Shown in pieces: positions 6,434 to 24,832 of a stretch of 64,000 nt of DNA. The stretch is from contig JBIPSI010000007.1 in the NCBI GenBank assembly GCA_044070495.1, forward strand, positions 32,001 through 96,000, given 5' to 3'. The stretch comes from Spirulina sp. (lineage in GTDB: Bacteria > Cyanobacteriota > Cyanobacteriia > Phormidesmidales > Phormidesmidaceae). How positions within the stretch are numbered: position 1 is the stretch's first letter; each line of letters opens with the position of its first letter. The position numbers were made by a program, and so were the translations under genes. Under the pieces are notes generated by a model. That model was given only the letters and a program-made list of their open reading frames with translations. It was not told where the DNA came from and searched no databases.

Positions 6434-7531
6434 CTAGTAATCATCAGGTTCTTGGTAAATGGCGGTACCTCCGGTGTAGGTTCGCAGAACGATCTGCTGG
6501 TCAGGGCCTTGGCCGAGGATGGTTGGTGGCGACACCACGACCTTGCCGCCGCCACCGGGGGCATCCACGACGTATTTGGGTACGGCATAGCCGCTGGTAT
6601 AGCCCTGTAGCTGGGAGATGATCTCCAGTCCCTTGGCAATGGAGGTACGAAAATGCCCTGCTCCGGCCACCAAGTCACACTGGTATAGATAGTAGGGGCG
6701 CACCCGGTTTTTGACGAGCCGGTGCAGGAGTTGGCGCTGTACCTCCACCGTGTCGTTAATGCCCGCCAGCAAAACACTTTGGTTGCCGAGGGGAATGCCA
6801 GCATCCGCTAGGCGTGCGAGGGCCAAGGACACCTCGTCCGTGATCTCACGGGGATGGTTGCTGTGGATGTTGATCCAAAGGGGATGGAACTGGCGCAACA
6901 GGTCACACAACTCAGGGGTGATGCGCTGGGGCAAGAATATCGGCACTCGACTGCCAATGCGAATAATCTCGATATGCTGGATGGCCCTCAATTCCTTGAG
7001 CAGGTGCCCTAGGGCCACATCGGAGAGCGTAAGGGGATCCCCGCCGCTGATCAGCACATCGCGAACTTCAGGGTGCTGCCTAAGGTAGTCGATTTGAGCT
7101 TCTAGGTTGTCTAATCCGGGAGTTTGGTGAAAATCCCCTACGATACGACTGCGAGTGCAGTAGCGGCAATAGCTGGCGCAGTGCGTCGTGACAATCATCA
7201 GCACCCGATCCGGATAGCGATGAACCAGTCCCGGCACCGGGCTTTGTTTTTCCTCGCACAGACTATCCACCATCAGTTCGTCCATCGGCTTTAGCTCTCG
7301 CCCCAAGGGGATCACCTGCCGCCGAATGGGACAATTCAGATCCGTCGGGTCAATCAGCTGGGCAAAGTAGGGGGTAATGTCCACCCGAAAATGACCTGGT
7401 GCACTCAGTCCTTCTCGTTCCTCAGGGCTGAGGTGGATCAAATCTTCTAATTCGTCCATTGAATTTAGACGGTGCTTGAGCTGCCAACGCCAGTCCTGCC
7501 AGTCCTTTGTGGGAACATCCGTCCATTTCAT
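6434..7531 (-). CDS. kamA: KamA-family radical SAM enzyme, lysine 2,3-aminomutase
   Basis: CxxxCxxC (CASYCRYC), 'HRYPDRVL', 'SGGDPL', 'YQCDL', 'VVDAPGGGGK' with the PLP lysine. Confidence 0.9.
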   Translation of the reverse strand: MKWTDVPTKDWQDWRWQLKHRLNSMDELEDLIHLSPEEREGLSAPGHFRVDITPYFAQLIDPTDLNCPIRRQVIPLGRELKPMDELMVDSLCEEKQSPVPGLVHRYPDRVLMIVTTHCASYCRYCTRSRIVGDFHQTPGLDNLEAQIDYLRQHPEVRDVLISGGDPLTLSDVALGHLLKELRAIQHIEIIRIGSRVPIFLPQRITPELCDLLRQFHPLWINIHSNHPREITDEVSLALARLADAGIPLGNQSVLLAGINDTVEVQRQLLHRLVKNRVRPYYLYQCDLVAGAGHFRTSIAKGLEIISQLQGYTSGYAVPKYVVDAPGGGGKVVVSPPTILGQGPDQQIVLRTYTGGTAIYQEPDDY

Positions 7532-7981
7532 AATGCTGTACTCTAATACATAATGGTGTCATTTCGGGCACCCTGCATAACTCAACCTATGCCTAGCATG
7601 CCCACTTCACCGCTAGTCTTCCACCTTAAAACAGAGGGGAAAACTGCATTGGGCAACAGCGACTAAGCTTCGATGTGCTAGGGACTTTAGGTAAGTTCAC
7701 TCGATTCCAGACTAATTTCGCATCAACTTTGGCCTAAATCATCGGTTTTCATTAAGATAAGCCGCTGTTTTGACCTTGCCATGGATCAAGCTGACAGGAT
7801 GAGGAAGACAGTGAACCCACCCCAGAGACCTTGCAGGCAAGGCGTTTAGGATTATTCTGACTTAGACATTCTGCTCCATCGGCTAACAGCTTATTCGTCA
7901 AGAAATCGCTACATATAATAGTTTTCTAACAGATGACGCGAATCTGACCAATGCTAACCCTGCGAACAATGGACTTAGCTC

Positions 7982-8128
7982 CTGACGACCTGGCACAGCG
8001 ACTAGGTAGGTTAGGTGCAGCGGAGCGAAACCCAACACTCGCCGAAGATTTGGGGCTTGCTGAGTTCTGCTATCGCGCCACCCAACCTGCGGATATAGAG
8101 GCTTTTCGACGTTATGTTCGGCAGCCAG
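7982..8128 (+). mobile_element. MITE, type A core (REP-like GTAGGTT...AACCT[A/G]C hairpins)
   Basis: Colinear and similar in length to 43240-43387; no clear TSD, so probably decayed. Confidence 0.7.
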
Positions 8129-8165
8129 GCCCTTGGTTTTACTTCATTTAACTGAAGTTTGCCAT

Positions 8166-8295
8166 CTGGTTGACTGACAAAACTTGCGAGAACCCAAATC
8201 CGCCAAAGGGTCAGGAGACCTGACCCCTACATTATCCAAATCCTGTAGGGGCGCGGTTTCCGCGTCCGGCGCAGGATCTTCTGTCAGTCAACCAG
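8166..8295 (+). mobile_element. 130-bp MITE, type B core
   Basis: Perfect 14-bp TIR CTGGTTGACTGACA; flanks gtttgccat/gcttgccat (8/9 TSD match); near-identical to 22987-23116. Confidence 0.9.
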
Positions 8296-8395
8296 GCTTG
8301 CCATAGAAACCTAGAATAATAAGCATAGAAAAAAATCATCTATCCTGATGCTTCGGATATTTTCGCCAAAAATTTTCATCATGAATCCAAAATGA

Positions 8396-8842
8396 TTATA
8401 CCGAAGCGACTTCAACCAGGGTTAGGTTAACAATACTACGTACTGGCGTACCATCCGGAAGAAACATGGTCAACTTATAGCTGAGAGATTGTACAAAGCA
8501 GCGTAGATACTCTTGACTGCCCCACGTAAATACATAAATTGGTGGTCGATCTTTGCCATCTAAAAATTCAACAGCCTGGCGAAATTTACTGATGTATTCC
8601 GTGTAAACATTGCCACCACTTTCGTAGGTATCAAAGACAATATTACTAATAGTTAATCGCCAAGGTTCTGGAGAGCCAAAGCTAATTTTTGGCAGTCCAG
8701 AGTCTGTCCGAGAACCAGGGGATGAATTGAGATTAACAGTGCGATCAAAGTTTAACTCCGTGGGGTTGAACATAAATTCAATCGTATCAATCGTGCTGTT
8801 TCCCTCTCGTGCAATTAGCTTAGCCTTAACTGGATTTGTCAT
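8396..8842 (-). CDS. CIS tube-initiator protein (CIS_tube / Afp7-like N-terminal domain), no LysM
   Basis: 'FMFNPTEL', 'RPPIYVFTWG', 'SLSYKLTMFLPDGTPVRSIVNLTLVE'. Confidence 0.85.
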   Translation of the reverse strand: MTNPVKAKLIAREGNSTIDTIEFMFNPTELNFDRTVNLNSSPGSRTDSGLPKISFGSPEPWRLTISNIVFDTYESGGNVYTEYISKFRQAVEFLDGKDRPPIYVFTWGSQEYLRCFVQSLSYKLTMFLPDGTPVRSIVNLTLVEVASV

Positions 8843-8852
8843 AGCCTTAGTA

Positions 8853-11800
8853 TCATTTCAAACGTTTGTCGTAAAGTCTTCCGTGGCGTTCTTTCTCAAT
8901 CATCAATCGTTGCCGCATCCTGTAATAAACTTCCTGGGCTAGTTGTTCCAAAGCCCAGGATTTGTCGGCATTATCTTTCGGTGCACGATTCTGATTTGCC
9001 TCAATGGTTGTGAACGGTGTATCCTCCTTAGCTTGAATCAGAAAACTGGGCTGAGACAAATCCGAATGAGCAGTATTTTGGGTTTGAATGGCAGGTGGAT
9101 TACGAAATTTGAGGACAGGCTTAGTACGGGAAATAGAGAGTCTTCGCTGAATTGACGTGGTTGATAATGGCGATGACGTCGTTAGGGGTATAGAAGATAC
9201 GGTTGGCGAGGTCTCTACGATTTCCTGGGATAATTTTGGCTCAGTTCTATCCCAAGTTGTTGGTTGCATTTTTGGAGAACCGTCCTGAACTTGAGATGCT
9301 ACTAAGTCTGCTAAATTTTGCCACTCTGACGGCAACACTGAGTCATTGTCATCCGCTAAACGTTGAATCATTGACGCATCCATCTGAGATGGTTGAGCCA
9401 TTTTAGATAAATCAGATTCAGATTGTTGCCTGAGCCATGACTGTTTTATAGATTCAGGATCTGTATCAGGTATTCGAGAAATTTTGTCTGTCTCAGGATG
9501 GTGGACAACGTCAGATAAATCCGCATGAGGCTGTATAGGTAGCGTTGCAATTGAAGATAACTGAATTCCAGCTATATCTAAATTATGTTGACTTTGTGCA
9601 GCATTAGTGACGACAAAAACGCCTTGATTTTGATCAGAGCTTTGGTCATATTTTAGCGGCAATTCTATCTCTATTTCTCGACGAATTGAAGTATCTTTTT
9701 CCAAGCCATTTTCAATTATTTGCTGATTAACTTCAGGCTTTCTTTGAAGCGATCTAGGTGGAGACTGAAAATCCATCAGAATGGGCAAGTTTTCATGGTC
9801 TTTAGAATTTTTTTGCAAGCCTATATCTTGTGAAGAAGCAAGGTTTTCTGGCCAAGTTGGTAATGGTTTAACGGTCCCATGGATGACTGTATGCTGATCC
9901 AAGTGCTTATTTATGTTTTGTTCTTGGGCAGCACTAGCACCTACAATCATTGGGTTTGTGGCGTTGATTGCTGACACATTACGTTCTAAGGAGTTGTCTA
10001 ATGCCAAGTCCTCCGACTTCAAGAGGCGGCTAGACGGTGACCCTAAAGCTGAATGTGTCGATTCAATGGTTGACGAAAAGCTGGAAATACCTTCACTCAA
10101 TCGCTGAATACTGTTGGCCGACGCATTTGCCGCAGAAAACAGATCCCCAGGGTTTAGTGCATTTACGGCAAATATTGATGTAGCACTGGATGGGATAGTG
10201 CGATCTCCAAAACGAGATATCGAAGTATCTTGAGTAGATGATTGTTCTTGATTAGAACTTTGGAGATTTTCATTTTCTGAAAATTCAGGATTCGTAGTTG
10301 ACAGACTTGTTAAATTATCAAAATGGCTAGCGTGTGTTCTCTGAATATTTTGGAAAGATACGTTCTGAAACTGTGGCAGCCTGTCAGCGGCAATAGAATC
10401 TACTAAAGGCGTTTTTTCTTCGGTTTCACCATCTGTTGAGAAAAAAGGATTGATCTCGTTAACTCGCTGAATTTGACTAGGAAGTACAGCTTTAGTCATC
10501 GAGATCACCATAGGATGGTGATTAACTACTTGAGCATTGACAGCGACAGTTCCTGCGTCAAAGCCTTGAACGTCAGGCGTTTGAATATTGTGGGGCTGAA
10601 CGCTCTCGAAATTGGATAGGGAGTCAGCAGAATATAGCCTAGTTGAAGATATTATATCTGGCTCAACAACATCCTTGTTTTCGCTATTTTTTTGAATGAT
10701 ATCTGGTAGCAAATCTTCGGAGTTAGGTCGGCCAGCAAGATAAGCTTGACTAGATTCTTGAACAGCTTCGGAGGAGTTATCCACAACCGTAGGCCATAAA
10801 TCAGACCTTGGGGTAGATGCCGCTGGTGAGGATATCGAACTGACTGGAGTGCTCGACTTTGTATCGCGTGATAGTTGAATAGTATTAGATGGCGTGTCGT
10901 TATATTTTGGCAGTATTTCAGGACTGAGAAAAGATGTAAGAGACGGAGATAAGTGGTCTAAAGAAAGGTTTGGATCAGGATCTCTGTGGAGTTGGATCCT
11001 CTCTAGAGAAAGAGCTTTATCACTGGAAGAGATTTGCTGACCTCGCTGAATAACAGTATGATTTTGTGAAAGTTTAGACGAGGATCCGAGATCTAGTGAG
11101 GTCAGTTCATTTTCTGATCCGATAACGCTAATTTGCTGATCAACAGGTAGCTTTATCGGGTCAGATATAATAGGTGAAAAAAAAGTAGAATATCTTTCAG
11201 GATACTTTTGAACTTTATCAAAGGTTTTTCCTTCAATACTCGACAGAAATTCAGGTGATAAATCCGCACTCAAAGTGTTAGATTTATTATCTCCAGGGTC
11301 AACATCATTTTCCTCGTTGGTCTTCTGAATCTGTTTTAGGAATGAGCCTTCAATACCAACTAAAGGTTCGGATTCTGATCCCTCAGATACTGAAATTGGT
11401 GCCGAAGATATAGAAGATAAATCTTCTGAGATGGTCGATTCCTCTCCATGGAATTTCTGAACTTTATTAAATAATGGTGATTCAGCGTTTAATGTAGGCT
11501 GACTATCTAAGGATGCGTCCTTAGATATCGTACCAGACAGGAAATCTACATGGTCTGAGGACGTATCGCCAGAATCTTTTTCGTCCTGAGATAATGTTTC
11601 TTGATGATCAGTGAAAGATTTAAATTCTGAAGATGGAGTTGCAGGGATAGATGAATTATCTATTGAGGAAAGGCCGCTTTCTCCATTAACTTTATTAATT
11701 GGATTAGGAGGTGAAATCTGAAGATTAGATACAGCCTTGGGAATGGAATGTGGTGTTGAAGATTCAGGATAGCCATCCAGAGGAGCCGTAGAGTCTTGCT

Positions 11801-14800
11801 CGACAGTTCTCTGTATTGGCTGATCGGATATGTTTCCAATATCTGTTTGAAGCTCAAATCCAAAGTCTAACTTTGAAGATGTGGATAGATTATTTATTAG
11901 GAAGTTAGTATTTTCTTCAAAAGCATTCTGAATTTGCCTGTCTGAACTTGCTTTAAGACGAGCAGGCTCTTGAAAGGTTGACGTTGTTAATTCAGCCTCA
12001 GATAGGGTATCTGCCGAAGAAGGTATATTGTCATCGGCTACTCTCTGAATTGGATAAGATACCTCCCCCTCAATATGATTTCGCAATTGAGGCTCTAGCG
12101 CTTTAGGTTCAGACACGGGAATATTATTGTTCGAGGAGATAATATCATCCTCGGCCATGCTCTGACTCTGACCCGAGGAGATATCTCTAAGATCTCTGGT
12201 TGGTTCAGCACCTAAATTGAGATCAGATACTAAATCAGATTTAGGTGCAAATTCTATATTTGTGAGAGAATGATCTGCTTGACTAGTTCTTTGAGTCTGT
12301 TCAGGGGATGTATTCTCAGGGATAATGACAGGTTTTGCATCTAAGTTTATGGTTGCAGACAAAGATTCTACGATTGTTGGGTTCGGGAAACTTTCTTCGT
12401 TAGACTCCTGAAGGTTATTGGGCGATGATAGTTCAATATCCGTTGGGGTTTCACGAGCTAAGTTGTCTGACTGATATGTAAGGTTTGTGTCCGTTGAGAA
12501 TGTTGAACTACTTTCGCTAGACTTCTGAATTTGCTCAGGTATTGATCCCTCAATAATAGGTTGTGTTTTAGTCGATAAGGTTTCTACCGTTGTCTCAGAT
12601 GCCACATTAGCTAAAAATTCGGGGTAGTTCCCCTCCATTATCGGAATAGACGGGGAGGATAGGTTTTCAGCAGCGCCTAAGGCCTGAGGTTCTAAGGCTG
12701 GGATTGTAGGTATAGGCCCTGAATCTCCTACGGATGCAGTGCTTTCCTCACGCATTGTTTGATTCTGATCGAATGACAGCGCATCAAGATTTATTGGAGG
12801 GTTATTAACAAAATTCTCTAGATTATGTGCAGAGGCTATATCTGTTGAGGATGTGGAAAGGCTTTCATTGGCTTTCTGAATCTGCTTAGGTGCTGCCTCC
12901 TCGATATCTACAGGCGTTTGAGTAAGAGGTGTTGTTGCAGAAGCAGAGACTATCTCCGTTTTTTCAACGGAGATTTCTTCACTGGCCCTTTGCAATTGAT
13001 CAGGCAATGCTTCTTTAATGTGTGGTTGTTCGCTAATAACTAGATTTGTCGTTTGGAACGCAGAATTTATATTTCCGGTAAACGTAGATCTTGCCTCATC
13101 AAATTTCTGAATCTGTTCAGGTATGAGTGTCTCGATGTCAGAATGAGTTTTGGACAATGAAGCTTCTGTAGTTAACTTAATTATGGCATTTGTCGAGGAT
13201 ATAGGATTATCCTCATTAACCTTTTGAATTGGGCTGGATGACACCTCTTCAGCAGCGGCTAGAGGTTGAGATTCTAAGGCCTTGATTTCAGGGATGGGTG
13301 CTGCATTCGTGGGTGGCATAGAGCTTGCTTCACGAATGGTCTGACTCTGCTCGAATGATGATACCTGATCAATATAGACTAGAGGTTCATCAACGAGATT
13401 CTCTGAATTATGTGTAAAGGCTAGATCTGTCGAGGATGTCAAACTATTTTCATCAGCTTTCTGAATCTGCGTAGGTACTACTTTCTCGATATCTAAGGGC
13501 ATTTTAGGCGGTAGATAGGCTGTCGTTGAAGTAGAGGCTGTATCTATTGAGGGTACAGACTCTATATCCCTTGCAGGCACAGAATTTTCCTCACCAGTCC
13601 TCTGCACCTGTCCAGGCAGTGTACTTTGGGCACGAGTCGAAATCTCCGTATCTAAGGATGCGTCTACCAAGGGAGATGCTGTATCGGTGGAGGCAATAGC
13701 ATCGACCTCGATCTCTTGTTGTGGTTGCCCTAGCAAAAAAGATTCAGTATTTTGAGACGTTGCGGTTTTAAGTAGTTGTATCGTAGGCGTGGATAAGGAC
13801 TCTGCTGACAATGTTGAGCCTTCTTCCCTATCTCTCTGGATCGACACAGCCGATGGATCTTCAATATCTATTGAAGATGTAGATGTTAAGACATCTGCTG
13901 CGGAAGAAGAGGTTTTCTCTGTGGAGATGCGAGTATTTCTTTCGCTATGATCCTGGGATTCTTGATAGGATAGTTGCTCTCTCTCAGAGACGTTTTCAGG
14001 ATCTGGCGATTTTTGCGTAGAGGATGATGGGCCGTCTGCAATCAATTCAGCACGACTCTCACTGGATCTTTGAATCTTTTGAGAGACTGAATCACTAGCT
14101 CTCAATGAAATTTCAGGAAATGCCGGATTCTGCGCAGAGAATGGTGTGCCCTCTGACAGCAAAAGACTACTTCTTTTAATAGAGCCTTGACTAAGGTCAG
14201 GAGCCAAGTTTTTAGGGGCCAAGTCTTCGCTCCTGATTAAAGCTTCATCGTTAACGGATTCTATATCCAAGTCTGATGCGTTGACGACAGAAGCCGTTGG
14301 GTTGCTTTCGCTAGCCCTTTGAATAGGCGTAATTTCTGCTAGCACTGTTTCAGGAAAATCGGTAGAGATTGGGGAATTTTCTATATGTTCTAGCCCCATC
14401 TCCGTGGGGAAAGCAGCACTGCTCTCAGTGACACCATGGGAATGTTGTGGGGCTGAAGGTTCTGATTGGATTAGATTAGGCTTAAATAGAATTTCTGATC
14501 GTTGTAAATCGGCATGGATAAATGGTTCAGCTTCTGTTGTTTCCGGTAATAAGTTTGTCACCTCGGCCATGCCACTATCCATCATTTGCTGGGGCTGAAG
14601 TGGCGCAGGCGGTGTAGAGAAATCGACGATGACAGGCAAATTTTCGTGACTTGGCGGAGTATGGGCTGGCATCCCCGGCGTGGGGCTAATTCTAGTTGTC
14701 GGTTGGGATGTGGAAGCCTCTGTTGGAGTAACATTCTTGGCCTGAATAGCCTGGGCAGATGTAACGGTATTTTCAGTAAAGAGATTACGAGAAATTTGAG

Positions 14801-16028
14801 GTTGATTCGCTGTTGATGTATGACTGCCTGAAACTGATGTATGTCTCTCTTCAGTATTTGGAGAAGATTCTAGATTTTGCCCTTCCTTCGGACTGTGGGA
14901 AATATTACCCTGGACATCTTCATTCACCTTGACGTTCGGTCGCTTTACTCCGAGGACGTTATTCTCCTGGTCGCTACTCTCTGGAGAAGAGAGTCTTTGA
15001 ACAGAGAAATTGTCAGGGTTCGATTTAAGAGTGCTCAAATCAGAAAATATGGGCTTAGATTCTACGACAATGGCTTGCTTGTCAACCGAATCCTGAGAGT
15101 CTAACATGGAATTAGGCAGGGATTTTCCTGACCGCAACTCCTGGGATAATACGCCGTTCTCGACAATATTAGCCTGACTGTCTAGCGCTGATTGGATCGC
15201 ATTGCTATCCGGAATAATAGCTTGTGAAAAAGTGCGATTATCTAGGTCAAAAGATGTATTTAAATTGGCAGAAGAAGGCCACGTGTTTTCTGGAATGACG
15301 CGATCTTCTGCACTATTTCTTTGGATTATGTTATTGTCGGAGGTGTTTATTGCTTTGGGCAGACTGCTACCTGATGTAGAACTTCCCAGGAAAGTACGTT
15401 CCTGAGAAATTTCCCCCTCGGGAAATATGGTTTTAGATGTTGTCTCCTCTAAATTAATGTTGAGGGAAAGCTTGTGATTTTGAATAATCTCATCGTCAGG
15501 ATTTATCGCAGCCTTAGGTTGGATAGGTGCCGACGCAGGAGCGTCTATCTCAGGGCGCTTTTGGATAACTAACGGTTCAGAGGTTAAGACAACTTTAGGG
15601 GCAAGGTTTTCTGTCCTAATATCCTCTGAAAAGATATTACTTGGGGGCGATAAATTCTTAGGATTTGAGGTAAAAATAGAGGGTTTATGTTCTGAAGTAC
15701 TATCCTCTGACAAGGATTGTGTTTGAATCGGATAAGGCTTAACGTTAGAGAGATGACTTTGAGGTGACGTGCTCGCCGTTGGGGAAAATCCTTGATGAAA
15801 AAGTGGATCTGAGACAGATGATGATGCAAATTCAGTATTCTCTGGAGAGAATTGTCTGTGAAGCTGAGCAGCCTCGCTAGGTGAAGTAACTTCTTCTTCA
15901 ATGGGGTCAATGTCGGGCAAGCCAGCGGGGAAAAAATAGGCTAGATTTAACACCCCCAAGGAATGTGCCCCTAGGGGCTGGTGGTGTCCTAGGGGTTGGT
16001 TTGCAGAGACCAGGAGAGAATCGACCAT
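8853..16028 (-). CDS. 2391-aa S/T/P/E-rich low-complexity CIS-associated protein with repeated [IVL]Q[RK] motifs (tape-measure/cargo-like)
   Basis: Long uninterrupted ORF in the tail operon; C-terminal 'LEQLAQEVYYRMRQRLMIEKERHG' helix typical of CIS-locus proteins. Confidence 0.7.
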   Translation of the reverse strand: MVDSLLVSANQPLGHHQPLGAHSLGVLNLAYFFPAGLPDIDPIEEEVTSPSEAAQLHRQFSPENTEFASSSVSDPLFHQGFSPTASTSPQSHLSNVKPYPIQTQSLSEDSTSEHKPSIFTSNPKNLSPPSNIFSEDIRTENLAPKVVLTSEPLVIQKRPEIDAPASAPIQPKAAINPDDEIIQNHKLSLNINLEETTSKTIFPEGEISQERTFLGSSTSGSSLPKAINTSDNNIIQRNSAEDRVIPENTWPSSANLNTSFDLDNRTFSQAIIPDSNAIQSALDSQANIVENGVLSQELRSGKSLPNSMLDSQDSVDKQAIVVESKPIFSDLSTLKSNPDNFSVQRLSSPESSDQENNVLGVKRPNVKVNEDVQGNISHSPKEGQNLESSPNTEERHTSVSGSHTSTANQPQISRNLFTENTVTSAQAIQAKNVTPTEASTSQPTTRISPTPGMPAHTPPSHENLPVIVDFSTPPAPLQPQQMMDSGMAEVTNLLPETTEAEPFIHADLQRSEILFKPNLIQSEPSAPQHSHGVTESSAAFPTEMGLEHIENSPISTDFPETVLAEITPIQRASESNPTASVVNASDLDIESVNDEALIRSEDLAPKNLAPDLSQGSIKRSSLLLSEGTPFSAQNPAFPEISLRASDSVSQKIQRSSESRAELIADGPSSSTQKSPDPENVSEREQLSYQESQDHSERNTRISTEKTSSSAADVLTSTSSIDIEDPSAVSIQRDREEGSTLSAESLSTPTIQLLKTATSQNTESFLLGQPQQEIEVDAIASTDTASPLVDASLDTEISTRAQSTLPGQVQRTGEENSVPARDIESVPSIDTASTSTTAYLPPKMPLDIEKVVPTQIQKADENSLTSSTDLAFTHNSENLVDEPLVYIDQVSSFEQSQTIREASSMPPTNAAPIPEIKALESQPLAAAEEVSSSPIQKVNEDNPISSTNAIIKLTTEASLSKTHSDIETLIPEQIQKFDEARSTFTGNINSAFQTTNLVISEQPHIKEALPDQLQRASEEISVEKTEIVSASATTPLTQTPVDIEEAAPKQIQKANESLSTSSTDIASAHNLENFVNNPPINLDALSFDQNQTMREESTASVGDSGPIPTIPALEPQALGAAENLSSPSIPIMEGNYPEFLANVASETTVETLSTKTQPIIEGSIPEQIQKSSESSSTFSTDTNLTYQSDNLARETPTDIELSSPNNLQESNEESFPNPTIVESLSATINLDAKPVIIPENTSPEQTQRTSQADHSLTNIEFAPKSDLVSDLNLGAEPTRDLRDISSGQSQSMAEDDIISSNNNIPVSEPKALEPQLRNHIEGEVSYPIQRVADDNIPSSADTLSEAELTTSTFQEPARLKASSDRQIQNAFEENTNFLINNLSTSSKLDFGFELQTDIGNISDQPIQRTVEQDSTAPLDGYPESSTPHSIPKAVSNLQISPPNPINKVNGESGLSSIDNSSIPATPSSEFKSFTDHQETLSQDEKDSGDTSSDHVDFLSGTISKDASLDSQPTLNAESPLFNKVQKFHGEESTISEDLSSISSAPISVSEGSESEPLVGIEGSFLKQIQKTNEENDVDPGDNKSNTLSADLSPEFLSSIEGKTFDKVQKYPERYSTFFSPIISDPIKLPVDQQISVIGSENELTSLDLGSSSKLSQNHTVIQRGQQISSSDKALSLERIQLHRDPDPNLSLDHLSPSLTSFLSPEILPKYNDTPSNTIQLSRDTKSSTPVSSISSPAASTPRSDLWPTVVDNSSEAVQESSQAYLAGRPNSEDLLPDIIQKNSENKDVVEPDIISSTRLYSADSLSNFESVQPHNIQTPDVQGFDAGTVAVNAQVVNHHPMVISMTKAVLPSQIQRVNEINPFFSTDGETEEKTPLVDSIAADRLPQFQNVSFQNIQRTHASHFDNLTSLSTTNPEFSENENLQSSNQEQSSTQDTSISRFGDRTIPSSATSIFAVNALNPGDLFSAANASANSIQRLSEGISSFSSTIESTHSALGSPSSRLLKSEDLALDNSLERNVSAINATNPMIVGASAAQEQNINKHLDQHTVIHGTVKPLPTWPENLASSQDIGLQKNSKDHENLPILMDFQSPPRSLQRKPEVNQQIIENGLEKDTSIRREIEIELPLKYDQSSDQNQGVFVVTNAAQSQHNLDIAGIQLSSIATLPIQPHADLSDVVHHPETDKISRIPDTDPESIKQSWLRQQSESDLSKMAQPSQMDASMIQRLADDNDSVLPSEWQNLADLVASQVQDGSPKMQPTTWDRTEPKLSQEIVETSPTVSSIPLTTSSPLSTTSIQRRLSISRTKPVLKFRNPPAIQTQNTAHSDLSQPSFLIQAKEDTPFTTIEANQNRAPKDNADKSWALEQLAQEVYYRMRQRLMIEKERHGRLYDKRLK

Positions 16029-16135
16029 GGGCGGGCGTGGGACGTCCTGTAGGGGCTGGAATAAGCGGTAACTAGGAAGTTAAAAAATGAAGAAACTGAT
16101 GAACTCATTAACCCTGGGATGCATTGAGAGATGGA

Positions 16136-16693
16136 TTAATGACTAGAGAAGTAACCTGAGGAATCGCGTCGTAGATCGGTGGATGCGCCGCCACTACTTC
16201 CTTTAAAGACAACTTTTAATCCCTCATAGGCAAGGGTAAGTTCTTCGAGGGCTACAGTAGAGGAATCAGCCTGAAGGGTAGGGGCTTTCCAGCTCGTAGG
16301 AATAGCTCCAATCAGAGTCCAACACTGCATTGTTTCCCCGGATTGATTGAACACTAAAATATTGATATTGCGACGATAACTAGAAGGCGCAGTACTTCCA
16401 GATTGTTGGGCGAGAAGAGGAGAAATCCAGTTCCAGAACACGGGATCATCGCTTAGGCCACGTCGTAGTGTAACATCCGAGAATTCTGCTGGCCCCAACA
16501 GAATTCGTTGTTGTTCGTTTACGCCTCCTTCCATTAACGTTTCTTTTTTAATTTGGACACCTAGGCCGCTACACTCACTAAAGGAGGCCGTAATCTGGCT
16601 CTCTATTTCGACATAAAAATGGTTGGCCGTGACATAGTTTAGGCCAAAGGTATCGGCTCCATTTTTTGTGTTTTGGGAAGTGGTAGAGGGCAT
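16136..16693 (-). CDS. T4 gp19-like tail tube protein
   Basis: 'ASFSECSGL', 'EGGVNE', 'DVTLRRG', 'GAIPTSWKAPTLQA...VALEELTLAYE'. Confidence 0.9.
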   Translation of the reverse strand: MPSTTSQNTKNGADTFGLNYVTANHFYVEIESQITASFSECSGLGVQIKKETLMEGGVNEQQRILLGPAEFSDVTLRRGLSDDPVFWNWISPLLAQQSGSTAPSSYRRNINILVFNQSGETMQCWTLIGAIPTSWKAPTLQADSSTVALEELTLAYEGLKVVFKGSSGGASTDLRRDSSGYFSSH

Positions 16694-16695
16694 GG

Positions 16696-16750
16696 CTATT
16701 GGTTATTAGTTATTGGTTATTGGTTGTTGGTGACTAGGGATTGGGACTGG
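16696..16750. repeat. STRR-type heptamer tandem repeats (TATTGGT-like)
   Basis: ctattggttattagttattggttattggttgttggt... Confidence 0.75.
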
Positions 16751-16776
16751 GTTAACAGGCGGGATGTTCATGCGGG

Positions 16777-17019
16777 TTAGCGAGATTGTTGACGGGAGAG
16801 GTCTTGTTTGAGGAGGGCATAGACCCGGTCGCAGAGGTGCTGGAGGGCAATGGGGTCATTGAGGAGTTCGGCGGCGATCTGACCGATGGCAGCGAGGTCT
16901 TTGTTCGTGAGGGTGTCGGAGGGGGAGATGGGGGAACCTATGGGGGCGGATCCCTGGGTTGGTTCAGGAACCGCTGGGAATTGACTGGTGAGGGCTGTGG
17001 GATCGTAATGGTTAGGCAT
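16777..17019 (-). CDS. Small CIS-associated protein (80 aa)
   Basis: Lies in the operon; C-terminal 'LQHLCDRVYALLKQDLSRQQSR' resembles the C-terminal helix of the 2391-aa protein. Confidence 0.7.
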   Translation of the reverse strand: MPNHYDPTALTSQFPAVPEPTQGSAPIGSPISPSDTLTNKDLAAIGQIAAELLNDPIALQHLCDRVYALLKQDLSRQQSR

Positions 17020-17077
17020 GGGGGTTGGGTCTCGCTGGGTTTTGGTGGGGGCGTACCGCTGTATTTTCGTGCGGGGA

Positions 17078-17221
17078 TCATTGGGTGAGGTCGTTAATTT
17101 GGTCGATCCAGCGGTTGCGGTCTCGGTGTTCTAGGCTCAAAATTTCCTCCAGCGTCCAGTGAACCTGCATGGATAAAAAGGCTACCTCCGCTTGCAGGTC
17201 GGCGGCGGGGTAGCTTACCAT
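17078..17221 (-). CDS. DUF6760-like 47-aa protein MVSYPAADLQAEVAFLSMQVHWTLEEILSLEHRDRNRWIDQINDLTQ (not in the ORF track)
   Basis: Translated by hand; 'EVAFL...HW..EEIL.LEH.DR.RW' motif; overlaps the end of the chaperone gene in the -1 frame. Confidence 0.85.
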   Translation of the reverse strand: MVSYPAADLQAEVAFLSMQVHWTLEEILSLEHRDRNRWIDQINDLTQ

Positions 17222-17592
17222 TCCCCCGCCAGGGCAAGTTCCAGATTAAAAGCGTGCTGGCATTGGGGGCATTGGGCAGGAATATGGGCCTCGCCAGACT
17301 GGTTGATGCGGTTGTAGAACTCGCGCAGGTAAGACAAATCTACGGTAAATAGTTCTTCGAGCACCGTGGGCGTCAGGGTGACAAGATCGCCGAGCCGGAT
17401 GATCACCTGGGAAAGCATGACTAAATCTCCATAGCCCGGTTGAGCCTGGGCTTGGCGGTTGCGCGACACGGTGAGTTCGTCGCGGGCGGTGGCAAGGCGC
17501 ATGATCCCTTCCCGACGCAATACGCCATCGGATCCCATGAGACCACGGGGGAGTTCAAAGGGGAATTCGGTGGGGGGGAGGGGGAAGGACAT
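17215..17592 (-). CDS. Phage tail assembly chaperone-like protein
   Basis: 'FELPRGL...REGIMRLATARDE', 'LEELFTVDLSYLREFYNRIN', C-terminal CPQC; ATG at 17592 preferred over TTG at 17598. Confidence 0.85.
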   Translation of the reverse strand: MSFPLPPTEFPFELPRGLMGSDGVLRREGIMRLATARDELTVSRNRQAQAQPGYGDLVMLSQVIIRLGDLVTLTPTVLEELFTVDLSYLREFYNRINQSGEAHIPAQCPQCQHAFNLELALAGEW

Positions 17593-17597
17593 TGGCA

Positions 17598-17625
17598 AGT
17601 CGGGAGTCGGGAGTCGGGAGTCGGA
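17598..17625. repeat. STRR heptamer (AGTCGGG) x about 4
   Basis: agtcgggagtcgggagtcgggagtcgga. Confidence 0.8.
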
Positions 17626-17801
17626 AGTTAAGAGTTGATACGTTGGAGTTGGAGTATGGGAATCGAGGTTAGAAGGCGTTTGAAAAGGGTTGCCTCAGGT
17701 ACGCTTGGTCGCTAGATCGGTGTAAAACCACGGTTTTTTGACGGTTGAGGCTGACCTTGTCGGTATAACTTGGGACAAGCTTCGGCTTTTCAAACGTCCT
17801 C

Positions 17802-18260
17802 TTAGGGGGTGAGGTCGTTGATGTGGCGGTAGAAACGCTGTAGGTAGTCGAGGTCGCAGGCGAACAGGTCTTCTATCACCAGGGGCGAGACTTCGGAGAG
17901 GGTGCCGAGGCGGGTGATGACTCGCGACAGAATGAGTACCGTGGCGTAGGCGGGATTGGCCCGCACCCTAGGATCGCGCATGGGCACAATTTCGTCCATG
18001 GCCTTGGCCAGGCGCATCACCCCCCGCCGATGCCAGTTTCCGGCACTGTCTAGGTAGCCCTTGGGCAGTTCAAAAACATACTCTAGCTGAACCGATCCAG
18101 GTGGTGGCGCAGCGGTCGCGTCCATGACCGGATGGCTCGCTGCCGGATTACCCGACCCCAAATCCCCAGATACCGCAGACCCCGACGCAACCGAGGGCTG
18201 GGCCGGGGCAGACTTGACCACGGGGGGCAAGTTCAGGTTGTTGCTCATTTGCATGGCCAT
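17802..18260 (-). CDS. Second tail assembly chaperone-like protein (paralogue, lacks CxxC)
   Basis: 'FELPKGYLDSAGNWHRRGVMRLAKAMDEI', 'IEDLFACDLDYLQRFYRHIN'. Confidence 0.85.
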   Translation of the reverse strand: MAMQMSNNLNLPPVVKSAPAQPSVASGSAVSGDLGSGNPAASHPVMDATAAPPPGSVQLEYVFELPKGYLDSAGNWHRRGVMRLAKAMDEIVPMRDPRVRANPAYATVLILSRVITRLGTLSEVSPLVIEDLFACDLDYLQRFYRHINDLTP

Positions 18261-18309
18261 CGGTCACCTAGCCTTGTGGGGTTTTGCTTTGTGGGGGGTG
18301 GATTGTGTT

Positions 18310-18807
18310 TTAGGTGGGTTTGACTTCGGAGCGTTTGAGGGATTCTACGACAATTTCCATTTCTTCGATGTTAAAGTCGCCACTCTTAACATCTAGATCT
18401 GAGATTTTGTAGCGCATGGGCCAGGCCCGTTCAAAGGTGAACCGAAATTGTTCTTCTCCCGCTTGGTTGTAGATGACTAGGGATCCATCTCGTCGTTGGT
18501 CGGCCCATTGACCAGATTGCACCTTATCCAGCCAGTTCCAAAGGGTCATGGAAGTCGTGAGTCCTCGCCGCAGAGTGACGTTCGTATAGGTGGAATTGCC
18601 CGGCAGTTTAGTACGAACAACTCTTCCCTTAGTGTCGCCATTTTTGCCCCAAAGTTGGGGCGTAACTTCGCTAATTTCGATCACATCTTGGGACGCCTGA
18701 AAGCCACTGCAATCCATAAAAATTCCATCCACGCTGTCGATGCTACCATCGAGCTTAATCTCTAGGTAGAACCGAGCACTGGTGAGAAGTTCTGGAAAGT
18801 TTGGCAT
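18310..18807 (-). CDS. T4 gp19-like tail tube protein
   Basis: 'FMDCSGF', 'KLPG', 'NVTLRRG', 'RRDGSLVIYNQAGEEQFRFTFERAWP'. Confidence 0.9.
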   Translation of the reverse strand: MPNFPELLTSARFYLEIKLDGSIDSVDGIFMDCSGFQASQDVIEISEVTPQLWGKNGDTKGRVVRTKLPGNSTYTNVTLRRGLTTSMTLWNWLDKVQSGQWADQRRDGSLVIYNQAGEEQFRFTFERAWPMRYKISDLDVKSGDFNIEEMEIVVESLKRSEVKPT

Positions 18808-18819
18808 AACTTAAGTTCC

Positions 18820-19302
18820 CTATACCTTACGAATGACTTGGGTAAAGTAGAGCTCAAGCGTATCTTCTGCTAGCTGACCAGCACTATCTACCGATAGAGA
18901 GCCGATTTGGGTTTTATTGCCAGGAAATAGGTCAATGAAATTGAACCGCATGGCTTCTTTCCCGTCTGGATCATAAATGACTAACGATCCATTTTTTCGA
19001 TTTTTAGTGGCTTCAGATCCGCCTCCAGAGAAGGCGTCAGGGTGACACTTGTCGTACCATTCGTACAACTTCTGCTGATCGGCCTCATTACCACCCACGT
19101 AGGTGAGCGTGATTCGTGAGTCGTACTCTACGCCGCCAATTGTGGATTGGGTTTGGGTTACAGCATCCTTAGAGGAGCCAATGGCAGCATCTCCTCCAGC
19201 CACCTTGAGGGTGATTGAAGGGCCAGTCACCTTTTTCACAAACAAACTCGTGACACTATCAATTTCAAAGTAGAACCGCGAACTGGTTAAGTATTGAACC
19301 AT
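18820..19302 (-). CDS. Divergent gp19-like tail tube protein
   Basis: 'SSRFYFEID', 'RKNGSLVIYDPDGKEAMRFNFIDLFP'. Confidence 0.8.
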   Translation of the reverse strand: MVQYLTSSRFYFEIDSVTSLFVKKVTGPSITLKVAGGDAAIGSSKDAVTQTQSTIGGVEYDSRITLTYVGGNEADQQKLYEWYDKCHPDAFSGGGSEATKNRKNGSLVIYDPDGKEAMRFNFIDLFPGNKTQIGSLSVDSAGQLAEDTLELYFTQVIRKV

Positions 19303-19428
19303 GATAGTTAATTCCCCAAATTATTTCTGGTATCTACACGCTGGTGCCTACGGAATTTCTAAGAACTAGATTGTAGGACAAACGGCATTGGTTGCAAAAA
19401 TGCTTGATGAGCCATGCCATCTACGCTG

Positions 19429-19926
19429 CTATTTCTTCCGGTTGAATTTTTCGCAGGTAATGGTATAGGTTTCCTCGATGTAACTGTCGGTGGTGACATC
19501 TAGATCGGCACATTTATATTTAGAAGGCCAAGCCGTGAGAAAATCCCATCGAGCAATTTCCTTGCCGTCGGTGTCGTAGGCGGTGATGCTGCCTTCCTTA
19601 ATGTTGTCGCGCCACTTGCTGTTGCCACCGTTGGAACCTGGCAGGCATTCCTGAAACCACTTGTACATCTTGACGCTGGTGCTGGATGCATCACCACTGG
19701 CAATGCAAACACAATCAAAGCTAAACAAGCCTTCATGGCCTGCGGCGTTTACCTGCCAAACGGTTTTGCCACCTTTGGTTGTGCCGATGGCCTGTTGGCC
19801 ACCCTGAATCTTGGGTTGGTAATTGGGAAGACTAACACTCTTGAAAATGGATTCTTCCCCTTCTACAATTCCCTTAATTTCCAAGTAAAAACTACTTGGG
19901 GCAATGGGTTTATTCAGTTCTGCCAT
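19429..19926 (-). CDS. Divergent gp19-like tail tube protein (first after the sheath)
   Basis: 'KEGSITAYDTDGKEIARWDFLTAWPSKY', 'IEETYTITCE'; strong AGGAGG upstream. Confidence 0.85.
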   Translation of the reverse strand: MAELNKPIAPSSFYLEIKGIVEGEESIFKSVSLPNYQPKIQGGQQAIGTTKGGKTVWQVNAAGHEGLFSFDCVCIASGDASSTSVKMYKWFQECLPGSNGGNSKWRDNIKEGSITAYDTDGKEIARWDFLTAWPSKYKCADLDVTTDSYIEETYTITCEKFNRKK

Positions 19927-19980
19927 AACAACATGTCCTCCTGAGAATCATACAAAATGGGGTATCCTCTCCCTGAGATC

Positions 19981-20088
19981 TCATACTAAATCTGGCTTTT
20001 TTACCCCTGGTATCAGCGGGCGAGGAAACCTCGCCCCTACGATTTATCAGACTGGGAATCGGGGTTTTCTGATACGGATTTGGTATCA
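19981..20088. mobile_element. Small MITE/REP-like element (type C) between sheath and tube
   Basis: Imperfect TIR tcatactaaatctg / cggatttggtatca; internal hairpin gggcgaggaaacctcgcccctac; related sequence at 54736-54805. Confidence 0.65.
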
Positions 20089-20118
20089 AAACAGATTCAG
20101 GAAGAGGAATGCGGAGCT

Positions 20119-21828
20119 TTACTGGTTCGGTGCCCACTGGCTGATGCGGAAGATGACAAATTCCGCCGGACGGACGGGACAAACGCCGACTTCCACGTAG
20201 AGGCGGCCTAGCATCATGGTTTCGTGGGTGTTGAGTTCGCCGTCGCATTTCACGTAGAAGGCTTCGGCGGGGGAAGCGCCAAATAGGGCACCTTCGCGCC
20301 AGAGCCGTTCTAGGAAGTTGCTGACGGTGCGGCTCACCCTAGCCCAGAGGTCTTGGTCGTTGGGTTCAAACACTACCCACTGGGTGCCGATTTCGATGGA
20401 TTTTTCGATGTAGCTGAGCAAGCGCCGCACGCTGATGTAGCGCCACTGCACGTTGTCGGGTTCCACTAGGGTGCGGGCACCCCAAACTTTTAGGCCGCGT
20501 TGGTAGTTGGCAAAGTTGCGGATGCAGTTGATGCCCATGGGGTTGAGCAATTCCTGCTCGCGCATGTTGGTTTCGTAGGAGAGGCCGATGACGCCGCGTG
20601 GGGTTTCGTTGGCGGGGGCCTTAAAGACGCCACGGGATTCGTCGGTGCGGCACCAAATGCCCATCATGTGGCCGCAGGGGGGCACCATAATCGGGCGTCC
20701 GGCGTTGCGGGGGTTGGCCACTTTAATCCAGGGATAGTACAGCGCCCCAAACATGGATCGGCGGTTGAACAGGCTGAGCCACTGGGCCACATCCTGGGGT
20801 TTTTGCTGCTCTGGGGCCACCGGATCCATGCTCTTACCGGGTTTGACCGGGGGCGCATCTAGCACGGCCATGCGGTAGGCGGGGCCGGGGAAGGAGTTTT
20901 CGCACATGCTGAGCATGGATTCCATCACCCCATGCACCTGATCCATATCCATCAGGCCGTTTTGGTAGACCCGCATCAGGTCGGGGAAGGCCACCATGGC
21001 GGCTTCGTCCACCTCAAACATGCCCTGCATCCCGGTGCGGTCGTCCCGTTGGCCCTGGATGTCGCGGGAGAGGCGGCCTTCGGGGGAAATGTAGGGGGGC
21101 GGTGCCACTTCATAGATCCCATTGGCAGGGCGGCGGGAGAGAGCTTGCCCAGACACCGAAATATCCGTCAGGGTGACGTACTCCGAGTCGGCCAGGGCGG
21201 TGACGACGTAATCGGCCACCTCGGCTTCCGGCTCTGGGTTCATGGTCAGGTTGGGATAGCGCTCCAGTTCTTCGCCGTTTTGGGTAACGATGACGGTGAA
21301 AAACTCCCCGGTGTTGAGGGGCGGTTCGGCGTCTTCATCGGCGTCTTCGCCCAGGGGTTTGGGTTCGCCATCGGTAATCACCACCCGCACTCGGCTACCA
21401 CCGGAGGGGGGCAGGGCGGGGGTATCGCTGGCCTCGGCGGCTTGCAGGTTAAACCGCAGGGCGGGCTTGCCGCTGGAGGTCATCAGCTTGTGACCTGTAT
21501 CCTCTGGGGGGGGCACCGGGGAACCGGGCAGGCGGGTGCCAATGCTCGTGACCCAACAGCGACCGCCGCCATTCATAAACCAGCCGTTCACCGCAAAGGG
21601 GAGGTAGGCGTCAAAATCCGTAAAGCCATCGGAACCGGGTTTGGCAAAGGCTTCCAAATACTGGTTCCAGTTGGTCACCAGCATGGGTTTGAAGAGTTCG
21701 GCATCGCCCCGCACATCTTCGGTAAAGCCGATAAAGCCGCCCACGCTGAGGCTAACCCCATCAATGGGGCGACTACCGCGATCCACCTCTTCGACGTATA
21801 CACCGGGAGCAAAATAATCTAGGGCCAT
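20119..21828 (-). CDS. Contractile tail sheath protein
   Basis: 'FAPGVYVEEVDRGSRPI', 'ALYYPWIKV', 'RGVFKAPANE', 'VWGARTL', 'WRYISVRR', 'WVVFEPND', 'PVRPAEFVIFRISQ'. Confidence 0.97.
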   Translation of the reverse strand: MALDYFAPGVYVEEVDRGSRPIDGVSLSVGGFIGFTEDVRGDAELFKPMLVTNWNQYLEAFAKPGSDGFTDFDAYLPFAVNGWFMNGGGRCWVTSIGTRLPGSPVPPPEDTGHKLMTSSGKPALRFNLQAAEASDTPALPPSGGSRVRVVITDGEPKPLGEDADEDAEPPLNTGEFFTVIVTQNGEELERYPNLTMNPEPEAEVADYVVTALADSEYVTLTDISVSGQALSRRPANGIYEVAPPPYISPEGRLSRDIQGQRDDRTGMQGMFEVDEAAMVAFPDLMRVYQNGLMDMDQVHGVMESMLSMCENSFPGPAYRMAVLDAPPVKPGKSMDPVAPEQQKPQDVAQWLSLFNRRSMFGALYYPWIKVANPRNAGRPIMVPPCGHMMGIWCRTDESRGVFKAPANETPRGVIGLSYETNMREQELLNPMGINCIRNFANYQRGLKVWGARTLVEPDNVQWRYISVRRLLSYIEKSIEIGTQWVVFEPNDQDLWARVSRTVSNFLERLWREGALFGASPAEAFYVKCDGELNTHETMMLGRLYVEVGVCPVRPAEFVIFRISQWAPNQ

Positions 21829-21913
21829 GGGCCGCCATCCTTTTCTAAGCTAGGGGTTAAGTCTTGGCACGATGGGTCTCGAATCCAACGGGGAAGGCCC
21901 CGATACGCTAGGC

Positions 21914-22474
21914 TCAAGGCGGCGCATGGGGGAGCGGCAACTCATTCACCCCCATCCGATCCCCGAAGGGAATTTCAAAGGGAGCGGTCACCGAGATTTG
22001 CAGGGCTGGACGCAGGGGGATACCCAGGGTGATCCAGAAGGCGGGTTGGGTGACCAGGGTAATCGGCGTGACCCGCAGGGGCAGGGCTGGATATCGCCGC
22101 AGCGATGGCGACAGAAATCGATGGGGAATGTGGGGCGATTGCAGCAGCAGGCTGAGGCTTTCCGACAACAAGGCTTGCTCCCCGAGGGCGGTGTGGTCGC
22201 AGGCCATCAAGGCAAACACCACGTTGAACCAAATCGGCTGCGATCCGACCCCCAACGCTGGGTCGTGGTTCAGACTGGCCCCAGCGCTGGACGGGACATA
22301 GGGCTGCGGATAAGGACTTTGGGCCGACTGAATTTCGTAGTGGTACAGGTGCAGACAGGGCTTGCTCGAATCGGCGACTTGCCCCGGATAGCCAAAGTCA
22401 ATCTGCTCGGTGCCCGTAAGGGTGGGGCCGGATGCCAGTAGGTTCGCTACCGCCTGGGCAATCGCAGAGATCAT
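21914..22474 (-). CDS. Pvc16/DUF4255-like cap or terminator protein (short)
   Basis: 'PCLHLYHYEI', 'EQALLSESLSLL', 'FWITLGIPLRPALQISVTAP'; first gene of the tail operon. Confidence 0.75.
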   Translation of the reverse strand: MISAIAQAVANLLASGPTLTGTEQIDFGYPGQVADSSKPCLHLYHYEIQSAQSPYPQPYVPSSAGASLNHDPALGVGSQPIWFNVVFALMACDHTALGEQALLSESLSLLLQSPHIPHRFLSPSLRRYPALPLRVTPITLVTQPAFWITLGIPLRPALQISVTAPFEIPFGDRMGVNELPLPHAPP

Positions 22475-24753: not shown

Positions 24754-24832
24754 GTGGGCTTGTCTCCCCCAGGGGAAAGGGGACGTGGGACGGTGACCGT
24801 TGGGGCCTTCGGTTGGATGATTAGGCTCGGTA

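Follow-up and report, generated by a model that had tools for sequence, protein, structure and literature searches.

Genes Surrounding the Giant Gene

The window analyzed here is a 64,000-nucleotide (nt) stretch of a Spirulina sp. genome (NCBI GenBank assembly GCA_044070495.1, contig JBIPSI010000007.1, positions 32,001 to 96,000). Its minus strand carries, at 8853–16028, a gene for a giant protein of 2391 amino acids (aa; 260 kDa, net charge −175), which we regard as a candidate tape measure or lumen protein of a contractile injection system (CIS). The host genome is 5.3 Mb in size, with 56.7% GC and 12 phycobilisome-family matches. The gene is a single uninterrupted open reading frame (ORF) of 2391 codons, and the plus-strand reading of the same interval is riddled with stops. 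A chance ORF or antisense artifact was ruled out by the 2391 open codons, the existence of orthologues with conserved ends, and the operon context.

The structural genes around the giant gene all lie on the minus strand. In the direction of transcription they comprise a Pvc16_N (DUF4255) cap or terminator-like gene (21914–22474), a sheath gene (20119–21828; Phage_sheath_1 and Phage_sheath_1C), and three gp19-type tube genes (19429–19926, 18820–19302, and 18310–18807), all assigned by domain matches. These are followed by two tail assembly chaperone homologues, a (17802–18260; 152 aa; PHROG 508, E 1.8e-3) and b (17215–17598; 127 aa; PHROG 508, E 1.5e-5; orthologues in related loci), which are paralogues of 44% identity, and then by a 47-aa DUF6760 ORF (17078–17221; PF20546, E 2.9e-8), an 80-aa ORF designated P0070 (16777–17019), and a Cis5-like tube adaptor gene (16136–16693; Phage_T4_gp19, with NCBIfam CIS5_fam below cut-off). 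The giant gene begins 107 nt after the Cis5-like gene, and a Cis7-like tube initiator gene (8396–8842; CIS_tube, PF19266) begins 10 nt past its stop. The giant gene thus lies directly upstream of the tube initiator and downstream of the chaperone homologues, which is the slot of a tape measure.

An earlier note, made from the sequence alone, had placed the gene in the tape-measure position between the chaperones and the tube initiator. This placement was correct, with the DUF6760 ORF, the 80-aa ORF, and the Cis5-like gene also intervening, and the succession of a Cis5-like gene, a homologue of the giant, and a Cis7-like gene recurs at all 10 related genome loci and at the locus of one metagenome orthologue (L066). 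In all 10 genome loci a gp19/Cis5-like gene, a family member, and a CIS_tube gene are followed by a VgrG-like spike gene, after which several loci add PAAR or DUF4280; the family member is split into two frames in three of them. The metagenome locus has ORFs of matching sizes and order up to a 148-aa Cis7-like ORF, a comparison made by ORF size, with sequences compared for the C-terminus of the giant and a radical SAM gene only.

The injection system of the host genome is split over three loci, of which the window (contig C7) holds one. A second (C14:1133–9187) encodes a spike, a DUF4280 protein, a Cache/HAMP sensor, a Cis15-like AAA+ ATPase beside the spike, and a DUF4157 protein, and the third (C30:47943–51805) encodes gp25, Baseplate_J, and P2_I homologues. 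The giant gene is the largest ORF of the system, and the three loci showed no further long candidate for a ruler.

Composition and Predicted Order of the Giant Protein

The protein is rich in serine (15%), proline (8%), and threonine (7.5%), has no cysteine, and contains no hydrophobic segment (no 19-residue window with a Kyte-Doolittle mean of at least 1.6). A secreted adhesin or S-layer protein was ruled out by the lack of a signal or hydrophobic segment, together with the fixed CIS context. The protein falls on the unfolded side of the charge-hydropathy line; the helical tape measure of a prophage-like tail in the same genome falls on the folded side. This separate tail, on contig C40, has a tape measure of 1125 aa and an RHS-repeat protein. 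In a single-sequence AlphaFold2 model of residues 840–1240, which is weak evidence on helicity, the mean predicted local distance difference test score (pLDDT) was 45, and 303 of the 401 residues fell below 50. Helix was drawn for approximately residues 946–1057 only; 10-residue block means ranged from 41 to 84, with a peak of 83–84 near residues 970–989. The description of the protein as disordered and non-helical is therefore well supported as a prediction from composition, charge-hydropathy, and this model, the second term holding for most of the chain, with one possibly helical stretch.

The giant gene was also said to be visibly AT-richer than the sheath gene, and it is, with 42.7% GC (34% at third codon positions, GC3) vs. 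60.9% (GC3 75%). The segment from 8396 to 22474 as a whole is a mosaic, in which the cap, sheath, both chaperone genes, and the 80-aa ORF have 58–62% GC (GC3 65–75%) and the three tube genes, the Cis5-like gene, the giant, and the Cis7-like gene have 42–49% (GC3 34–54%), the genome mean being 56.7%. Because the L066 locus shows the same pattern (57% in the chaperone region, 38–46% in the rest), the mosaic predates the split of the two lineages.

No family in Pfam, NCBIfam, or PHROGs was found for the whole protein, and the C-terminal piece and small family members gave only chance-level matches there (E ≤ 10 in Pfam and NCBIfam, E ≤ 1 in PHROGs). Likewise, no relevant chain was found in the PDB with two C-terminal profiles (A2 and A3), a Nostocales-type member, or a profile of small ORFs (A6). 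The clusters closest to the C-terminal 192 residues in the ESM Atlas were unnamed hypothetical proteins, mostly from Cyanobacteriota. A search of sequencing runs with the giant gene listed no RNA run, and the best DNA runs contained 0.39 of its words.

A 39-Residue Repeat Unit Centered on a Short Motif

The motif [IVL]Q[RK] occurs 28 times in the giant protein, compared with 2.14 ± 1.45 times in shuffled sequences (maximum of 9 among 5000 shuffles), and of the genome's 8994 ORFs with 100 aa or more, the giant gene is by far the most enriched for it. Of 20 motif spacings in the stretch from residue 500 to residue 2000, 17 lie within ±5 of a multiple of 39.3 residues. The best period was 40.0 residues (vector strength 0.71), which none of 2000 random placements equaled when periods of 20–90 were scanned, and the residue autocorrelation of the protein peaks at lags of 39, 117, and 78. 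Both the motif excess and the period are real and far beyond chance. The earlier note's estimates by eye, of roughly 30 motifs spaced every 35–45 aa in the middle, agree well with the count, far above compositional expectation, and with a period of 39–40 residues.

The motif sits in an extended unit of approximately I-E-x3-P-x-Q-[IVL]-Q-[RK]-x-S-E-x2-S (86 instances in four orthologues), with I, E, P, and Q preferred before it and S, E, and S after it. The repeat array covers residues 496–2000 (10029–14543, minus strand) and contains approximately 24–27 recognizable 39-residue units, each centered on [IVL]Q[RK] and continuing into S/E-rich residues; the larger gaps inside the array equal an integral number of units. 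Trained on the giant's own units, a model recognized 27 of them in the giant, a number that is circular for the seed units, and 27, 14, and 23 in three orthologues. The array is flanked by two boundary motifs on the same strand. The one directly upstream (residues 456–480; 14589–14663) begins HENLPVIVDFSTPP... and has invariant L464, P465, D469, F470, S471, T472, and P474, and the one downstream (residues 2079–2097; 9738–9794) reads HENLPILMDFQSPP...LQRK. They correspond to a distant internal duplicate that had been noticed in the sequence, which proved to be real: HENLP...DF..PP recurs at residues 456–469 and 2079–2092, with columns that are invariant in four of four orthologues.

We compared the giant in an alignment with three orthologues (57, 35, and 30% identical to it). 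Motifs were retained at aligned positions in 18, 8, and 17 of the 28 cases, respectively, and identity at motif columns was 0.78, 0.56, and 0.63 vs. 0.57, 0.27, and 0.25 at other columns of the repeat region. Conservation is centered on the motif and approximately 10 residues around it, and the stretches between motifs drift. Judged from these alignments, selection acts on the motif. In a precursor of many peptides, the pattern of conservation would be expected to be the opposite. The suggestion that the protein is a polyprotein yielding many peptides fits poorly with these data, since drift between conserved motifs argues against a precursor of many bioactive peptides. A complex prediction for the two chaperone homologues with repeat residues 1000–1076 scored 0.00 (mark 0.32) and is no evidence either way.

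Conserved Ends and a Predicted Terminal Helix

The ends of the giant protein are its best conserved parts, with an identity of 0.53 over residues 1–100 and 0.69 over the last 91, compared with 0.17–0.43 in the middle. The N-terminal 45 residues (15894–16028, minus strand) carry the pattern PLGHHxPLG ... FFPxGLP, with invariant columns in alignment A1. This segment is conserved family-wide, and a PLG...FFPxGFP pattern is found also at the N-termini of distant family members.

The C-terminal module (residues 2216–2391; 8856–9383, minus strand; 70% mean column identity in alignment A2) consists, in order, of an IQR motif, a helix with the sequence LPSEWQNLADLV, IQRRLSIS, the segment LIQAKEDTPFTTIE, and a terminal helix. 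AlphaFold2 with 27 sequences modeled the last 192 residues as coil and two helices, the short LPSEWQNLADLV helix with block-mean pLDDT of 67–68 and the amphipathic terminal helix of 39 residues (residues 2350–2388; 8865–8981, minus strand), which we propose as an anchor to the hub or spike, with block means of up to 96. The terminal helix is homologous to the C-terminal helix of small ORFs (hhalign 95.6%, E 1.3e-8, 35 columns) that lie upstream of Cis5 in 7 of 10 related loci. In the window the corresponding ORF is P0070, whose C-terminal helix is paralogous to that of the giant and which may be a plug-like partner.

The layout of the giant's C-terminus, a conserved strand-like segment, a loop, and a confidently predicted helix, recalls the Cis6 plugs. 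As published, Alg6, Pvc6, and Cis6 of Anabaena, the last of 50 aa, consist of an N-terminal strand, a loop, and a C-terminal helix, form trimers in the spike cavity, and are essential for assembly; cis6 is encoded between cis5 and cis7. Searches of the PDB with the C-terminal profile (A3) and the small-ORF profile (A6) found no solved CIS or plug chain at E ≤ 10. Because neither profile matches a solved plug chain, the term plug-like, as we use it for the giant's end, refers to position and predicted layout alone.

Family Members Across Cyanobacteria

Apart from the giant, a word-indexed search of 5.8 billion proteins recovered only three relatives, all of similar length. Scans of genome contigs for related loci confirmed no relative. 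With a profile built on the C-terminal 175 residues, 67 proteins were matched at E ≤ 0.001 among 1.84 billion representatives. The matched stretch ends within six residues of the C-terminus in 61 of the 67 and lies further in for five rows (P0049, P0053, P0064, P0068, and P0069). The listed proteins range from 53 to 2671 aa, some of the short ones being fragments. Among 401 sampled genomes of the phylum, the C-terminal module was found in 31 genomes from 22 of 156 genera, in open frames of 108 to 2410 aa. The giant shows all traits of the family, with the module at its extreme C-terminus, the conserved N-terminus, and a low-complexity middle.

For 31 of the 39 family members of at least 300 aa, the number of [IVL]Q[RK] motifs exceeded that in all 300 shuffled versions. 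Genome-derived members in L050, L052, L053, and L057 have one such motif each. A lag of 38–39 residues ranked first or second in the autocorrelation of 6 of 18 members examined, some of which have a different repeat sequence, and it tops or nearly tops the autocorrelation in L066, P0006, L054, L053, and L050; owing to their close kinship, the giant, L066, and P0006 do not count as independent here. The L053 member (L053:8122–11172, genome G144) has approximately 21 near-identical 38-residue units containing PEIQLKQ, which points to very recent amplification of the unit. The L050 member has units of 16 + 23 residues, and in the L054 member the units are of 39 residues and contain LQRR.

The family and its motif appear to be undescribed in Pfam, NCBIfam, PHROGs, and the literature covered by a limited search, in which neither was mentioned. 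With the family absent from the three databases, its genes are currently unnamed in cyanobacterial genomes.

The Motif in DUF4157 Proteins

Proteins with DUF4157 (Pfam eCIS_core) mark the cargo of extracellular CIS (eCIS; PMC8213781; PMC11297309), and the domain bears a metallopeptidase motif (PMC8213781). A genome search for this peptidase family, proposed at the outset, found five DUF4157 proteins, all encoded outside the giant's locus. Their N-terminal regions contain 16 [IVL]Q[RK] motifs vs. 1.35 expected (each P ≤ 0.026), and all 19 DUF4157 N-terminal regions from five other cyanobacterial genomes showed an excess as well (76 vs. 6.9 expected). The association of QR motifs with DUF4157 proteins stated in the earlier note was thus borne out in 24 of 24 N-terminal regions examined. 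The motif lies on the N-terminal side of the domain in all 24, and in some it occurs again just after the HExxH segment. Furthermore, the giant's C-terminal IQR(R/K)LSIS resembles, by eye only, an IQPKLTIG segment conserved in the five N-terminal regions of the host genome.

All five host DUF4157 proteins have repeats before the domain that consist of hydrophobic-Q-R, an acidic run, and ELQMKP, and all 19 proteins from the other genomes (L067–L086) have tandem QRE, acidic run, and ELQMKP directly before it. Judging from these sequences, the repeat seems to be common to the N-terminal regions of cyanobacterial DUF4157 proteins in general. It was not mentioned in the literature covered by the limited search.

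In AlgoCIS the disordered N-terminal region of the cargo is needed for loading and DUF4157 is dispensable (10.64898/2026.05.27.728243), and a DUF4157 protein of Streptomyces elutes together with the Afp5 homologue and the N-terminal part of a tape-measure-like effector (10.1101/2025.11.06.686954). Since the motif is enriched in all 24 N-terminal regions, it more likely addresses proteins to the lumen or mediates docking than marks sites of polyprotein cleavage, in our analysis of these data. The simple form of a co-evolving pair of giant and DUF4157 protein was rejected, as the motif excess in DUF4157 proteins is present irrespective of how motif-rich the family member is.

The Giant Protein as a Probable Tape-Measure Equivalent

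Tape measures (T4 gp29, pyocin PA0625, and Afp14/Pvc14/Alg14, i.e., Cis14) share several features with the giant, which is likewise the largest gene of its module, follows chaperone homologues, directly precedes the tube initiator as PA0625 precedes PA0626, and has conserved ends around a variable middle. Unlike them, it has no detectable sequence relationship to tape measures, is predicted to be mostly non-helical, is strongly acidic, and is built from 38–39-residue units with a short linear motif. In AFP-type clusters, cis14 is placed elsewhere. The fixed slot, the chaperones, the conserved ends, the quantized unit, and the lack of another candidate together favor a tape-measure reading, and we consider it reasonably probable that the giant is the tape-measure equivalent of a CIS split over three loci. 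It would most likely be Cis14-like by role and not by sequence. The putative ruler role is well argued from anatomy and context. The data establish the gene, the excess and period of its motif, selection on that motif, the conserved ends, the gene order, and the homology of the chaperones, and from these we infer the protein's presence in the particle, its anchoring, its function as a ruler, and the binding partner of its motif.

The proposed arrangement is as follows. The last ∼65 residues (strand-like segment, loop, and 39-residue helix) would anchor the chain in the hub of spike and tube initiator, as in phage tape measures and the small Cis6 plug, and the conserved N-terminal 45 residues would mark its far end, with the acidic, largely unstructured middle threading the tube lumen. 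Each 38–39-residue unit would offer one [IVL]Q[RK] as a basic spot along a chain that is negative elsewhere. Such units could serve as periodic contacts for the two chaperones during assembly, for a negatively charged tube lumen, or for both, and they would make protein length change in fixed steps of 38–39 residues. The lumens of the AlgoCIS, AFP, PVC, and Anabaena CIS tubes are reported to be negatively charged. The [IVL]Q[RK] element is probably, in our analysis, a lumen-addressing signal common to the ruler and the DUF4157 cargo, because that cargo bears the same element in its N-terminal region, the part that holds the loading signal in AlgoCIS.

Published dimensions allow the unit to be compared with the tube. 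Alg14 acts as a ruler at approximately 0.22 nm per residue, setting the length and cargo capacity of AlgoCIS, and the published eCIS slopes are 0.2156 and 0.229 nm per residue (10.64898/2026.05.27.728243); the AlgoCIS tube has 22 layers in 90.2 nm, i.e., 4.1 nm per layer. At these slopes a unit of 39.5 residues would span 8.5–9.0 nm, or approximately two tube layers, a match that is arithmetic on published numbers and not a measurement, and the whole giant protein would span 515–548 nm. The giant is approximately 4–5 times longer than Alg14, whose ∼510 residues we derived from the AlgoCIS length and 0.229 nm per residue.

Several points weigh against a tape-measure role. The giant has no sequence or profile likeness to tape-measure families in Pfam, NCBIfam, or PHROGs or to solved PDB chains, and it is mostly predicted coil, whereas eCIS tape measures are described as mainly alpha-helical in the center (10.64898/2026.05.27.728243). 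A particle of ∼515 nm would be several-fold longer than the reported 119 nm of Anabaena, the 90-nm AlgoCIS tube, or contracted haloarchaeal sheaths of 220 nm, and for a strict ruler a more than ten-fold spread of lengths in a single family is large. The Anabaena system, as published, has a separate 50-aa Cis6 and a separate Cis14, so that the proposed fused layout is not general. Eight of the 39 members tested (P0009, P0011, P0029, P0049, P0052, P0057, P0058, and P0064) lack a motif excess, and the DUF4157 motif persists where the family member has a single motif (L050, L052, and L053). Finally, the 39-residue repeat model misses the DUF4157 proteins: among the 8994 ORFs of the genome the giant alone scores (next best full-sequence E, 5.1), and the link between giant and DUF4157 proteins is a short shared motif and not homology. 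The two repeats also differ, the one in the DUF4157 cargo being ∼17 residues (QRE-acidic-ELQMKP) and not 39, and the giant has no DUF4157 domain, although its middle resembles the N-terminal regions of cargo of the Cgo1/Cgo2 type in being disordered and acidic with repeated [IVL]Q[RK] followed by acidic residues.

The shared motif also suits an alternative in which the giant, descended from a tape measure as Tme of Streptomyces davawensis is, would itself be a cargo or effector in the lumen, held at the hub until firing expels it, without setting length; its repeats would be loading or unfolding signals with whose help an AAA+ ATPase feeds such a long chain into the tube, and a Cis15-like AAA+ gene does adjoin the spike gene in the host genome. 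Tme, with 2247 aa, is the largest ORF of its cluster, lies directly upstream of baseplate genes, is ∼70% disordered, and purifies together with the spike and the tube initiator (PMC11126660), and the more than ten-fold length range of the family is easier to accept for a cargo than for a ruler. The N-terminal DUF4157, transmembrane helices, tape-measure homology, and C-terminal nuclease of Tme were, on the other hand, not found in the giant, which has no DUF4157 domain, transmembrane segment, or enzymatic domain. The three CIS loci offer no alternative ruler, and the chaperone homologues, conserved ends, and conserved unit length suit a ruler better, so that we regard a cargo as unlikely. Very improbable, in our view, is a polyprotein or sacrificial substrate, in which [IVL]Q[RK] would be a cleavage site of the DUF4157 HExxH peptidases, which would cut back their own N-termini and break the giant down to acidic peptides of ∼39 residues, either inside the lumen or once injected. 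The position of the motif before the domain in all 24 proteins, sometimes again after the HExxH segment, the metallopeptidase motif of the domain (PMC8213781), and the documented cleavage of a CIS part (the linker of Alg7/Cis7) would agree with this. It is the motif and its ∼10 flanking residues that are conserved, however, and the would-be peptides that drift; peptidase activity of DUF4157 is unreported in the literature covered, the toxicity of Cgo1 is reported to be independent of the metallopeptidase motif, DUF4157 is dispensable for loading (10.64898/2026.05.27.728243), and family members with a single motif coexist with motif-rich DUF4157 proteins.

We would give still less credence to the giant being an over-extended Cis6 plug, of which only the last ∼65 residues would function, as the spike plug, and the remainder would be a functionless low-complexity tail that evolves fast, is tolerated, and arose by replication slippage. 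The gene does occupy the exact cis6 place of the AFP-type order, between cis5 and cis7, its terminal layout is like that of published plugs, and the near-identical repeats of L053 and L050 reflect recent slippage. Yet plugs have ∼50–60 residues and the giant 2391, its locus also has a separate small paralogue of the helix upstream of Cis5, and it has no sequence match to solved Cis6, Alg6, or Pvc6 chains. Moreover, orthologues with 25–30% identity elsewhere conserve the N-terminal 45 residues, both boundary motifs, and the motifs of the repeats, and the unit length recurs with different sequences, neither of which suits a functionless tail. A bolder version of the tape-measure reading, which we think distinctly doubtful, has the [IVL]Q[RK]-acidic element as a portable lumen address for ruler and cargo alike, and the giant as a disordered, quantized ruler whose unit equals two tube layers. 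If this were true, each unit would provide one docking point, the number of units would set both particle length and the contacts of cargo and tube, cyanobacteria would adjust the length and payload of their injectors through gain or loss of units by slippage, and the injectors of this lineage would, by the published slope, be approximately half a micrometer long.

The measurement of length and the loading of cargo in CIS are still poorly understood, according to the PROCIS preprint (10.64898/2026.05.27.728243). Members of the family found here would form a natural graded set of putative rulers, spanning a few hundred to ∼2,700 residues, with a countable unit and a three-residue motif shared with the loading regions of cargo. 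The countable unit and the shared motif make two questions directly testable, namely whether an unstructured chain can measure length and whether ruler and cargo enter the tube by one signal, both of which bear on the engineering of particle length and payload.

Other Features of the Window

The ATG of the DUF6760 ORF overlaps the last codons of chaperone gene b, in the −1 frame of b. The overlap resembles the G/GT frameshift pair of phage chaperones, with no canonical slippery heptamer seen by eye.

Downstream of the Cis7-like gene lies a KamA-family radical SAM gene (6434–7531, minus strand), lysine 2,3-aminomutase-like and just under the equivalog cut-off. A radical SAM gene that is 84% identical occupies the same place in the metagenome locus (L066:11321–12469), where other relatives have the spike gene; the shared position may reflect plain shared ancestry or a functional link. 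The 860-bp gap in front of it (7532–8395) holds an inverted repeat with arms of ∼16 nt (approximately 8170–8295) and other palindromic stretches, and could be a small mobile element marking the break of the operon from the spike genes.

On the plus strand, divergent from the cap gene, a histidine kinase, a LuxR/GerE-type response regulator, and a second, longer Pvc16_N gene (25587–26861) are encoded at 23533–26861. GerE regulators and kinases are known to occur next to eCIS operons (PMC8213781). At the end of the window, a further open frame of at least 2724 aa (55757–64000, minus strand; ∼60% GC) runs off its edge.

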